A stretch of DNA of 64,000 nucleotides, taken from Escherichia coli (lineage in GTDB: Bacteria; Pseudomonadota; Gammaproteobacteria; Enterobacterales; Enterobacteriaceae). The stretch is from assembly GCF_003018235.1 (NCBI RefSeq), contig NZ_CP027437.1; one strand, written 5' to 3'. A program made the position numbers. Below are positions 36,001 to 39,000 of this stretch, piece by piece (within the stretch, counting starts at the first letter, position 1; every line of letters begins with the position of its first letter).

Positions 36001-39000
36001 ATTCATTATGTGCCATAGATGAAGATAATGCCGATGCCACGGTTTATCAGTCGGGTCTGTATAACGTCATTGTTTATCATCACACAGGAAAAGTCGCCTT
36101 AATGAAGGAAGGTCAGTTTGTGGGTTATTTAAAATGAAGGAGCAAAGGAAAATCCCCCTGACGCATATTATGATTATCGGTGCGTTTATTTTTGCCTTCT
36201 TGCAAGTAGTATTATTAGCCTCCCTGGTTCACGCTGTGAATGTTAACAACGAAATCCAGGAAGGCTTATTTCAATCGGGGCGCATAATGGTAGAAAGTTT
36301 GCAGCATATTCTTTCGGTGCAAACGGGGATTAACTGATTTTCACCCCGCCCGATGATGACAGCAGCCGGAGAGATTTTCGATAATCGGGCAGTCGGCGCT
36401 GTCATCACCAGGGCAGGCATTCGCCAGCGCCAGTAGCTGGTCGCGCATGGATTGCAGCTCCTCAATGTGCCGTTCGATCTCCGCTACCTTCTCCAGCGTG
36501 CGCCGTTTTACATCGGCGCTGTGACGCTGTGGGTCGTTAAACAGATTCACCAGTTCGCCGCTCTCTTCCAGGTTAAAGCCCACCTGGCGCGCCTGGCGCA
36601 GTAAGGTCAGTTCGTTGAGATGCTGCTGCGTGTAGGTTCGATAACCATTTTCGCTGCGCATCGGCGGCGTCACCAGCCCCTTCTCTTCATAGAAGCGAAT
36701 GGCTTTGCTGGTCAGGCCGGTAATTTTTGCTACATCGCTAATGTTCATCGTTCGCGCAACGCCTCCTGTGCTTTATTAAAGGGTTTCAACAGATAATCCA
36801 GCACGCTTTTTTTGCCGGTGCGGATATCGACCGTCGCCACCATGCCGGGAAATATCGGAAACTGCTGTTTATGTTTATTTTCCAGATGGTTGCTGAAAGT
36901 GCGAATGTACACCCGATAGTAATAAACATCGCGCCGCACTTCATCCTGCACGGTGTCTGGTGATATCACCGCCACTTCTCCCGGCAGGCCGCCGTAGCTG
37001 GAGTAATCGTAGGCGGTTATTTTCACCAGCGATTTTTGCCCCGGATGGATAAACGCCACATCGCGCGGGGAGATTTTTGCCTCGATCAGCAGTTGCTCAT
37101 CCAGCGGCACGATGGTCATCAGTTTACCACCGGGGGCAATAACGCCGCCAACCGTGGTGACGTCAATGTCCTGAACAATGCCACGTACCGGCGCGGTAAA
37201 GTTGAGCCGGGTGAGAGAATCTTCCCGCCCGCGGATCACCGAACGCTGGGTTTCTACTTCCGCATTGGCTTTCGCTAACTCTTCGCGCGCCTGAACGTAA
37301 TATTGCGTGCGCACGTCGCTGAGTTTGTTTTCCAGTTCATTGGCCTGGCGTTGCAGGCGCAGCACTTCGACGCTGCTCGCCGCCCCCTGTTTGACCAGCG
37401 GCTGGGTCATCGCCAGTTCGCGGTTGACCAGGCTAATCCCCTGCGTCAGCCCGGTGGTGGCTTTGTTCAGCCCATCGCGGCGAGTGTTGTACAACGCCGT
37501 TTCCGACTCGATAAGTTCGGGGAATTTATTCAGTTCGTCAGGGAAGACCAGCGGTTTATTGCTCACTTCCGCCCGCAGCCGCGCTGAAGTCGCCAGCGCC
37601 GCGTACAGGCGTGACATCGCTTCCTGAACGTCGGATTCCGTTTTGGTGCGATTAAGCTGCGCCAGCGGCTGGCCCTGTTCAACAATATCGCCAACTTTCA
37701 CGTTCAGATGATACAAAATCCCGCCTTCCAACGACTGTACCACCTGCTCGCGCCCGGAAGGTTCTACCGTGCCGCTGCCGGTGGTGACTTCATCAAGCTG
37801 GAAGTACCACGCCCAGCCAAGAAAACAGAGCAGCATCACAGCGGTAACGCGTACCGCCAGCGCCGAACGCGGCAGGCGGGGTTCGGTCAGGCCACGATTG
37901 TATTGCAGTTGTCCGTTCATGCAGCAGACCCCTTATTCTTTTCCTGCAACACCACCCGTCGCGTCGTGGGTTCGCCCTGTTCACGCAAAATGGCCTCTTT
38001 CGCGCCATCCATCACAATCCGCCCCTGATCCATCACGATAATGCGGTCCACCAATTGCAGCATCGCCGTGCGGTGAGTAGCAATGACCAGCGTGCGATGC
38101 CCAATCCACTGTTTCAGTTGTTCGATTAAATGCGCTTCCGCCATTTCGTCCAGCGAGGCGCTGGGTTCATCGAGCAGCACGATATTGGGTTGAGAGATGA
38201 GCAGCCGCGCCAGCAGCAGCGTTTGCCGCTGACCACCAGAGAGGCCAAATCCCCCTTCCTGAATCATGTAGTTGAGGCCGTTTTTCTGCTTCTGCACAAA
38301 GGGCAGCGCCCCGCTGAGGGTTAATGCGCGTTCGATATCTTCATCGCTGGCCTCCGGCATCCCCATGGTGAGGTTTTCCCGCAGCGAACCAAAAAACAGT
38401 CGCCCGGTCTGGCTCAGCAGCCCCATGTCGCGGCGCAGATCTGCCGGATCAAGTTGCCCGATGCTGATGTTATCCAGTAGCACCTGCCCCTGCTGGGCGA
38501 TACGCATTCCGGCGAGCATTTGCAGTAGCGTTGATTTACCCGCGCCGTTGCGCCCGAGAATGGCGATTTTCTCTCCGGCCTGAATGTTGAGTTTGCCAAT
38601 CGCCACATCGGCAATCTTCTCTTCTTCGTCGTAATAAAATACCGCGTTGCTGAACTGATAATTGCCGTGCAGCACCGCTTTATGCACCAGTTTGCCGTGT
38701 TCCGGCTGATCCACCGGGCGCTTCATCAGTTCATCAAGGCCATTACGCGCTACTTTCGCCTGCTGCCAGCGCGAGAGCACGCCGGATATCTGCGACAGCG
38801 GCGCGATGGTGCGCGAAGCCAGGATCGTCGTCCCGACCAGCGCGCCGGTGGTCATGTCACCGTTCATTACCATAAAGCAGCCCACCAACAGCACCACCAC
38901 GTAGACGATGGTCTGCACTTCCTGGGTCCAGGTGAGCAGTAGCCCGGTGAGAAAACGTTGCTTCATACTGATGGACGAGGCCACGTCGTTGGTGTGGTTC

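Follow-up and report, generated by a model that had tools for sequence, protein, structure and literature searches.

An Escherichia coli cueR start codon set on the stop codon of the O-island 28 gene hlyD28, and a probable deletion origin of the K-12-type cueR upstream region

We analysed a stretch of 64,000 nucleotides of Escherichia coli DNA (contig NZ_CP027437.1 of assembly GCF_003018235.1; the whole stretch is hereafter called the window), in which cueR, encoding a copper-responsive regulator, begins on the stop codon of a gene of a type I secretion system (T1SS). A preliminary description of this DNA had placed an ATGA overlap between the gene of the T1SS membrane-fusion protein (MFP) and cueR at 36741..36752. 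Direct reading of the sequence bears this out, with the shared ATGA at 36748..36745 of the minus strand (tcat on the plus strand), inside the earlier bracket. The proposed string of outer-membrane factor (OMF), adhesin, ABC transporter, MFP and cueR genes was also found in the window, with the OMF gene (+1 nt) and the adhesin gene (−1 nt) frameshifted relative to O157. Comparison with K-12-type genomes strongly supports the view that their locus is a deletion derivative of this arrangement, in which the end of the secretion gene remains as the upstream region of cueR. The features of the locus are as follows.

36341..36748, minus strand: cueR, Cu(I)-responsive MerR-family regulator, 135 aa (NF007590)
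36745..36748, minus strand: ATGA overlap, with the cueR ATG at 36748..36746 and the MFP TGA at 36747..36745 (read directly)
36745..37920, minus strand: hlyD28 (Z0635 homologue), HlyD-family T1SS membrane-fusion protein, 391 aa, intact (TIGR01843)
36745..36843, minus strand: MFP tail (~99 nt) surviving in K-12-type genomes, the cueR 5′ region there (blastn of the K-12 locus)
36762..36767, minus strand: AGGAGG Shine-Dalgarno (SD) sequence for cueR, in the MFP codons Q-E-A, 13 nt before the ATG (sequence)
36787..36824, minus strand: candidate island counterpart of the K-12 promoter P1, TCCGCA (36824..36819), 18-nt spacer, TGGATT (36800..36795) (alignment)
36844..63527, minus strand: O-island 28 segment not in K-12-type genomes, 26.7 kb (blastn breakpoints)
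37917..40079, minus strand: hlyB28 (Z0634 homologue), LssB-type T1SS ABC transporter, 720 aa (TIGR03375)
40083..61753, minus strand: giant BapA/SiiE-like adhesin gene, a 6892-aa open reading frame (ORF) and a 341-aa N-terminal ORF, split by a −1 nt change (Pfam)
61862..63218, minus strand: tolC28 (Z0608 homologue), TolC-family outer-membrane factor, frameshifted (two OEP-domain ORFs)
63499..63512, minus strand: RstA box TAATTCAAATTACC upstream of tolC28 (sequence match; motif and RstA binding from PMC12758282)
63522..63544, minus strand: ybaT intrinsic-terminator-like hairpin, 10-bp stem and T-rich tail, intact in the window
63556..64000, minus strand: 3′ part of ybaT, running off the window (K-12 locus comparison)

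The 391-aa ORF at 36745..37920 (minus strand) ends in ...GCG TTG CGC GAA CGA TGA, and the 135-aa ORF at 36341..36748 (minus strand) starts with ATG AAC ATT AGC.... The 135-aa protein scored 308.6 bits against the CueR equivalog NF007590 (cut-off 244) and 207.5 bits against TIGR02044 (cut-off 147.4). As residues 1-135 align with positions 1-135 of the NF007590 profile, the ATG in the overlap is the true start. K-12 CueR is a copper-dependent activator of copA and cueO, and the protein in the window, being identical to it, should act likewise. The 391-aa protein scored 330.3 bits against TIGR01843, the HlyD-family T1SS adaptor model (cut-off 208.65), and its best stretch (residues 185-391 on 217-422 of 422) reaches the end of the profile. 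Its neighbours are those of such an adaptor, namely an LssB-type ABC transporter, OEP-domain ORFs and a giant adhesin with RTX repeats. The transporter gene hlyB28 (TIGR03375, 836.8 bits, cut-off 693.1) lies upstream of hlyD28 and overlaps it by 4 nt. Four-nucleotide ATGA overlaps occur at 37917..37920, 32574..32577 and 27014..27017 of the window as well, so the overlap is ordinary in itself; what is out of the ordinary is that an accessory secretion gene runs to its native last codon and there meets a core regulator.

The secretion locus upstream of cueR is O-island 28 (OI-28) of E. coli O157:H7. As in O157:H7, it lies between ybaT and cueR with its genes in the order tolC, adhesin, ABC transporter, MFP; by blastn its nucleotide sequence is ~93% identical to that of an O157:H7 locus, and tolC28 has the same RstA box upstream. 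The genes of the O157:H7 island have been named tolC28, rtxA28, rtxB28, hlyB28 and hlyD28, and the island has been given a role in early adherence, with the RstA box mapped upstream of tolC28 (PMC12758282, Gut Microbes, December 2025). The window differs in the 1-nt frameshifts of tolC28 and the adhesin gene, and its adhesin is one gene split by a frameshift, not "two RTX proteins".

Alignment with the K-12 ybaT-cueR junction placed the breakpoints at 36843/36844 and 63527/63528. Positions 4001-4502 of the K-12 locus (L001) matched window 36341-36843 and positions 4505-4977 matched window 63528-64000 by blastn; 36844..63527 is replaced by 2 bp in K-12, where the final ~99 nt of hlyD28, with the ATGA, still precede cueR. 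This K-12 remnant is homologous to the 3′ end of intact hlyD28, lies at the same site and has a disabling lesion, the loss of one G after an A7 run (a 1-nt deletion), as befits a pseudogene remnant. The NCBI annotation pipeline PGAP records it as a 98-bp pseudogene, "frameshifted; missing N-terminus", with a 4-bp overlap with cueR, and the curated MG1655 record leaves the interval upstream of cueR unannotated. The same pseudogene layout and spacing, with identical derived changes, was found in seven island-negative genomes (K-12, ST131, O111:H8 and four others). In the alignment, the island-positive sequences, including those of E. whittamii and Escherichia sp. E1V33, all carry ATATCCGCAC..A7GCGTGCTGGATTAT, and 7/7 island-negative sequences carry ATATTCGCAC..A7-CGTGCTTGAATAT. 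The hlyD28-ATGA-cueR junction is the same in O157, ETEC1738, Escherichia sp. E1V33, E. whittamii and all K-12-type genomes examined. At the other end, the K-12 breakpoint (63527/63528) falls within the 3′ arm of the ybaT hairpin, which is truncated in K-12, and no terminator was predicted between ybaT and cueR there.

The stretch kept in K-12 is the true C-terminal end of the protein family. Among MFP orthologues from 80 loci, ranging from Enterobacter, Cedecea and Rahnella to Acinetobacter, 79/79 end in ...EALRER-stop with no residue of extension. A frameshifted remnant of ~99 bp, a native C-terminus and an intact junction in the outgroup E. whittamii strongly support what the preliminary description had raised as one possibility, that the K-12-type locus derives from the island arrangement by deletion. 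The layout and derived changes shared by seven island-negative genomes of different backgrounds argue for a single 26.7-kb deletion event in K-12-type genomes. Since this deletion spared the final ~99 bp of hlyD28, the surviving tail makes up the whole upstream region of cueR in every E. coli. A segment spanning the tail and the cueR start (36735..36843) was present in 5421/5426 complete E. coli genomes, with a bimodal identity: at least 95% in 961 genomes (island type) and 90-95% in 4450 (deletion type), 10 genomes at 80-90% being left unclassified. In 959 genomes, cueR was contiguous with at least 650 bp of hlyD28. From these comparisons, O-island 28 appears to be an ancestral Escherichia locus that was lost once, and not simply a gain of O157. 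The tail may have been kept because deletions removing it would have silenced cueR.

The intact hlyD28-ATGA-cueR junction of E. whittamii, a separate species, and of Escherichia sp. E1V33 indicates that the fusion predates E. coli, or at least is not confined to it. A CueR-like gene was found within 4 kb of the MFP gene at 0/77 non-Escherichia orthologous loci, so that, among the orthologues recovered, the placing of cueR on the MFP stop codon appears to be specific to Escherichia. The closest non-Escherichia MFP orthologues end in CGA TAA, after which comes a GC-rich hairpin. None of the 80 loci showed an ancestral form in which a spacer parts the MFP stop from the start of cueR, and a search for cueR contexts by exact protein returned E. 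coli-type contexts and no further species. A microhomology deletion is a possible origin of the fusion, the ATGA being on both partners. In Salmonella, copA and cueR form a simple divergon without ybaST or the island (PMC1526738). The CueR of the window is orthologous to the regulator of the known copA regulon and is identical to that of K-12, with the downstream synteny cueR-ybbJ-qmcA kept. In contrast to Salmonella, cueR of Escherichia is parted from copA by glsA-ybaT, with or without OI-28, and its 5′ region comes from the coding sequence of a secretion gene and not from the divergent copA intergenic region.

The cueR gene itself looks like a recombination mosaic beside two large indels. 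Its nucleotide alleles differ at 16-24 positions per 408 bp, mostly in the 3′ half, the protein differs by 0-2 residues, and only 2 differences are fixed between the island-positive and island-negative classes. The cueR of E. whittamii is no more distant from the E. coli alleles than these are from one another. An accelerated evolution of the K-12 remnant was considered and rejected, as the mosaic makes a rate comparison unsound.

Published data allowed the transcription start sites (TSS) of K-12 cueR to be placed on this remnant. Cappable-seq reported plus-strand TSS at 513102 (score 3.7), 513131 (49.2), 513178 (100.3) and 513196 (2.0) of U00096.2, the next being 515116 (PMC4782308). These coordinates were anchored in the K-12 locus by a sigma-54 motif centred at 512537 (PMC4591121), which puts the cueR ATG at 513217. 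The main K-12 cueR TSS accordingly lie at −39 and −86, both within the 99-nt remnant. SMRT-Cappable-seq gave a unit of b0487 (cueR) only, with its TSS at 513953 (PMC6131387); with cueR starting at 513993 in NC_000913.3 (an assembly offset of 776), the two datasets agree within 1 nt (−39/−40). K-12 cueR is thus its own transcription unit, made from two starts within the hlyD28 tail. An operon ybaS-ybaT-cueR had been predicted (PMC1526738); cueR as its last gene in K-12 is unsupported, given the b0487-only unit and main TSS downstream of ybaT. The weak TSS at 513102 (score 3.7) maps in the truncated ybaT hairpin (window 63528..63544; L001 4505..4523). A sigma-54 site CTGGCACTGGTTTTGCT from chromatin immunoprecipitation sequencing lies in sense orientation in ybaT, 680 bp upstream of cueR (L001 about 5096..5080), and its table entry gives cueR as the downstream gene (PMC4591121 Table 2).

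Both K-12 promoters were then compared with the island allele. In MG1655, the promoter P1 reads TTCGCA, 17 nt, TTGAAT, 7 nt and a G at the TSS, and the promoter P2 has the −10 box TATTAT at −12..−7, across the deletion junction. The first two bases of this box align to the side of the ybaT terminator and the others to junction or MFP-side bases; as the box spans the junction, P2 cannot exist in the island allele. For P1, all island-positive sequences have TCCGCA and TGGATT with a spacer of 18 (6/12 consensus matches) versus TTCGCA and TTGAAT with a spacer of 17 (8/12) in all island-negative ones, the derived K-12 changes being C>T, a 1-nt deletion, G>T and T>A. The −10 box of the island counterpart may also be read in another register as GATTAT (36798..36793), and 36787 corresponds by homology to the K-12 TSS. 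The best sigma-70 score in the tail by position weight matrix (PWM) was 1.67 for the island (ancestral) version and 5.08 for K-12. A strict sigma-70 consensus scan of the minus strand at 36300..38100 returned nothing, and a relaxed PWM scan gave modest candidates 129, 168 and 373 nt upstream of cueR. The K-12 promoters resemble those known to arise from junctions or mutations, in that the P2 −10 box crosses a deletion junction and P1 stands in former coding DNA with both hexamers and the spacer changed; the difference is that in this case a well-studied regulator of the reference strain has such DNA as its native promoter. We do not claim that selection gave birth to a promoter in the K-12 remnant: the changes in the hexamers all go toward consensus, but simulated random mutation did as well in 12.5% of runs, which leaves selection as a hypothesis only.

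For translation, the AGGAGG in the last codons of hlyD28 could serve cueR in both allele classes. This motif was not in the MFP orthologues at 66-72% identity and occurred in 8/77 overall, Escherichia loci included. Among island-positive lineages, the final 30 nt of hlyD28 had no polymorphism, and the last 100 nt had 6 polymorphic sites against a mean of about 11, which is suggestive but not significant. K-12 CueR is made from a 39-40-nt leader with the same AGGAGG and no translated gene upstream. An mRNA structure sequestering the cueR SD or AUG was not found, the local fold being no more stable than shuffles (z = +1.26). A spacing of 13 nt is longer than optimal for an SD sequence. The overlapping stop and start (ATGA, 36748..36745) have the geometry of termination-reinitiation pairs, on the same strand and with no terminator between them, as have hlyB28/hlyD28 and qmcA/ybbJ in the window. 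The present pair differs from others in that hlyD28 and cueR are functionally unrelated, and that cueR comes with an SD of its own and, in K-12, with promoters as well. Translational coupling between hlyD28 and cueR is therefore possible on geometric grounds but would not be needed, because cueR has its own AGGAGG, used in K-12 without a translated upstream gene.

To follow transcription into cueR in island-positive strains, we used RNA-seq values for EDL933 under 11 conditions, as reads per kilobase per million mapped reads (RPKM; PMC4048457 Table S4), and calculated Spearman rho with cueR.

tolC28: mean RPKM 133, rho 0.46, not significant
Z0609: mean RPKM 30, rho 0.49, not significant
Z0615: mean RPKM 0.8, rho 0.38, not significant
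hlyB28: mean RPKM 1.5, rho 0.43, not significant
hlyD28: mean RPKM 3.2, rho 0.78, p 0.005
cueR: mean RPKM 8.8

The genes hlyD28 and cueR lie on the same strand with a 4-nt overlap and no intervening terminator, as expected of an operon; prediction on the minus strand between them returned none. In O157 grown in DMEM, loss of rstA lowers hlyB28 and hlyD28 mRNA 3.25-4.85-fold (PMC12758282), which means that some operon transcription reaches hlyD28, and this runs into cueR without a terminator. Because RPKM rises from hlyB28 to cueR, initiation within hlyB28/hlyD28 is indicated rather than read-through from the tolC28 promoter. The preliminary description had suggested that cueR is driven in part by read-through from the secretion operon. 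The support for that part is indirect and comes from the lack of a terminator or gap and the RstA dependence of hlyD28 mRNA; what speaks against read-through as the main source is that cueR in EDL933 exceeds hlyD28, hlyB28 and Z0615 while tolC28 stands at 133. A dedicated cueR promoter in the MFP 3′ end, which the same description had held would speak against its reading, is present in the K-12 remnant, where the TSS are mapped. Read-through or coupling is probably a minor contributor to cueR expression.

Taken as a whole, the explanation that we favour, and consider probable, runs as follows. In Escherichia, cueR is fused head-to-tail to hlyD28 at the native stop codon of the adaptor. The K-12-type locus goes back to one shared 26.7-kb deletion that runs at one end into the ybaT terminator and at the other leaves ~99 bp of the hlyD28 end in place. 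In K-12, cueR is transcribed from P1 and P2 in the tail and translated through the AGGAGG in the last codons of hlyD28. In island-positive strains, it would be the last cistron of a unit without a terminator, and most of its mRNA would start inside hlyB28/hlyD28, a smaller share, dependent on RstA/Ca2+, reaching it by read-through from the tolC28 promoter; termination-reinitiation at the AUGA may add to CueR synthesis. Several points weigh against this explanation. The mapped cueR TSS come from K-12, and the evidence for island-positive strains consists of the EDL933 RPKM and the rstA effect; the RPKM are single-digit and noisy, and the fragmented EDL933 adhesin gene may exaggerate polarity. 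The island tail is without a good sigma-70 match, its best PWM score being the 1.67 given above, and the candidates at 129, 168 and 373 nt are pattern matches, of which the 129-nt one is not conserved in O157. The move of the K-12 tail toward promoter consensus corresponds to p about 0.125 in the random-mutation simulations. Finally, the notion that the tail was retained because it is needed is drawn from one deletion allele only.

Three other explanations were weighed against these data. If cueR were a true terminal cistron, its mRNA would come mainly from the RstA-activated tolC28 promoter under strict coupling to hlyD28 translation, and the CueR level would follow Ca2+/RstA and adhesin expression. 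The 4-nt overlap without a terminator, the absence of a good sigma-70 site from the island allele over its last 99 nt, the overlong SD spacing of 13 nt, the 3-5-fold fall of hlyD28 mRNA on loss of rstA and the cueR-hlyD28 rho of 0.78 over 11 conditions are all in agreement with it. However, mean cueR RPKM in EDL933 is above that of hlyD28, hlyB28 and Z0615, and transcription drops >100-fold within the adhesin gene. Nor do the ends of the unit move together, for tolC28 stood at 418 and cueR at 2 at 15 C, and at 58 and 27 in minimal medium. The island is also frameshifted in several lineages, the window (tolC28 and siiEA), ETEC1738 and O157 among them, without loss of cueR, and the same SD suffices in K-12 without a translated upstream gene, so that we regard a strictly terminal cistron as unlikely.

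Somewhat less likely still is an overlap without functional consequence, in which an independent cueR promoter would serve both alleles and the ATGA would be no more than what a microhomology-mediated deletion left on joining the MFP stop (cgATGA) to the start of cueR (ATGAac). The ATGA at the join is indeed on both partners, the K-12 tail hosts independent promoters, and cueR exceeds hlyD28 in EDL933. But none of the 80 loci yielded an ancestor with an intergenic spacer, hlyD28 transcripts must enter cueR where no terminator intervenes, P2 is impossible in the island allele, and the P1 boxes are weaker there (6/12 versus 8/12, spacer 18 versus 17). The third alternative is that a K-12-like ancestor gained the island by insertion. 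The ~99 bp would then have been non-coding DNA from the outset, into which the incoming MFP gene came to read, and the K-12 pseudogene would be an annotation artefact. The published account of OI-28 does speak of "acquisition", without mention of cueR, the operon structure or the K-12 remnant (PMC12758282), and the Salmonella copA-cueR divergon without ybaST or the island implies some earlier insertion between copA and cueR (PMC1526738). Yet the stretch encodes 33 residues that form the conserved C-terminus of the family, with the same last residue in 79/79 orthologues. Compared with every island-positive sequence, that of another species among them, the K-12 copy has derived substitutions and a 1-nt deletion that shifts its frame. 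At the other breakpoint, K-12 has only part of a hairpin that island-positive genomes have whole. We therefore consider insertion highly improbable. Returning to the favoured explanation, a bolder extension of it is that loss of O-island 28 created the cueR promoters of K-12 and ~82% of E. coli, P2 being assembled at the junction and P1 arising by derived changes that compensated for lost upstream transcription, while cueR in island-positive strains (~18%) still partly depends on transcription of the secretion operon. This is tentative, and we lean against it at present.

The island itself is decaying independently in several carriers. In the window, tolC28 has 1357 nt versus 1356 nt in O157, owing to +1 nt in an A run, and the −1 nt change of the adhesin gene (GTAGG-GCT, about 60728..60761) stands relative to both O157 and ETEC1738; these two 1-nt changes may be real pseudogenisation or homopolymer sequencing errors. 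ETEC1738 has an internal stop in TolC, the O157 adhesin gene is in three pieces, and in SCPM-O-B-8794, the GTDB representative of E. coli, a 2-nt insertion GCTGTGGATTAT frameshifts the hlyD28 tail (locus L007, 5040..5150). The decayed islands of the window, ETEC1738, O157 and SCPM-O-B-8794 all keep the hlyD28-cueR junction. The insertion GCTGTGGATTAT falls in the region homologous to K-12 P1 and leaves the ATGA junction unaltered. Where hlyD28 is intact, it appears to be under purifying selection, with 108/126 polymorphisms among island-positive lineages at third codon positions. In ETEC1738, the closest genome to the window at the junction, a siiEA coding sequence is annotated directly against hlyD28 (locus L003, 5314..25521), and a separate ABC transporter gene is not annotated there. 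The giant adhesin has a BapA_N prefix, Ig-like Big_13 repeats, FG-GAP repeats and RTX repeats by Pfam, and its NCBI product name is "BapA-related adhesin SiiEA". The locus thus resembles the giant-adhesin T1SS of the Lap/Bap/SiiE type, its ABC transporter and MFP scoring above curated cut-offs and its adhesin combining BapA_N, Ig-like and C-terminal RTX repeats. It differs in that the MFP gene ends the operon in 77 loci of other genera, often followed by a hairpin, and a regulator sits on the stop codon only in Escherichia.

A second variable segment (33024..36340) lies flush with the cueR stop codon. It contains a 113-aa hypothetical ORF on the minus strand, an ORF for an autotransporter with a YadA anchor (600 aa in the window versus 338 aa in O157), a 140-aa lipoprotein-like ORF and a 67-aa ORF. 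K-12 has 9 bp in its place, with the ybbJ stop abutting the cueR stop and the end of YbbJ reading ..AVSS* versus ..AVIA*. The segment varies independently of OI-28, all four presence/absence combinations having been seen. A sequence TGCGACGCTGACGCGTCTTATCATGCC resembling repetitive extragenic palindromic (REP) elements lies at 33033..33060, directly 3′ of the ybbJ stop, and K-12 keeps only CGTCTTA-like bases of it. This REP-like remnant after ybbJ hints at how the second deletion formed.

A literature search found no paper describing the loss of OI-28, the hlyD28 tail as the cueR 5′ region or K-12 promoters in the scar. The locus is a well-documented example of known processes, namely operon-end capture, a pseudogene remnant and a junction-born promoter, and involves no new mechanism. 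The evolutionary reading of a virulence-associated "O-island" is corrected, in that it appears to be an old Escherichia locus whose loss allele has spread across phylogroups. A textbook metal regulator thereby proves, in the reference strain, to have its promoter and ribosome-binding site in the scar left by the deletion of a secretion gene. Where hlyD28 or the whole island is deleted together with the last ~100 bp, expression signals of cueR may be lost too. Island-positive and island-negative strains may set their CueR levels differently, and if the promoters were indeed born of island loss, the two allele classes would differ in how copper sensing is wired to RstA/Ca2+ and to expression of the adhesin.

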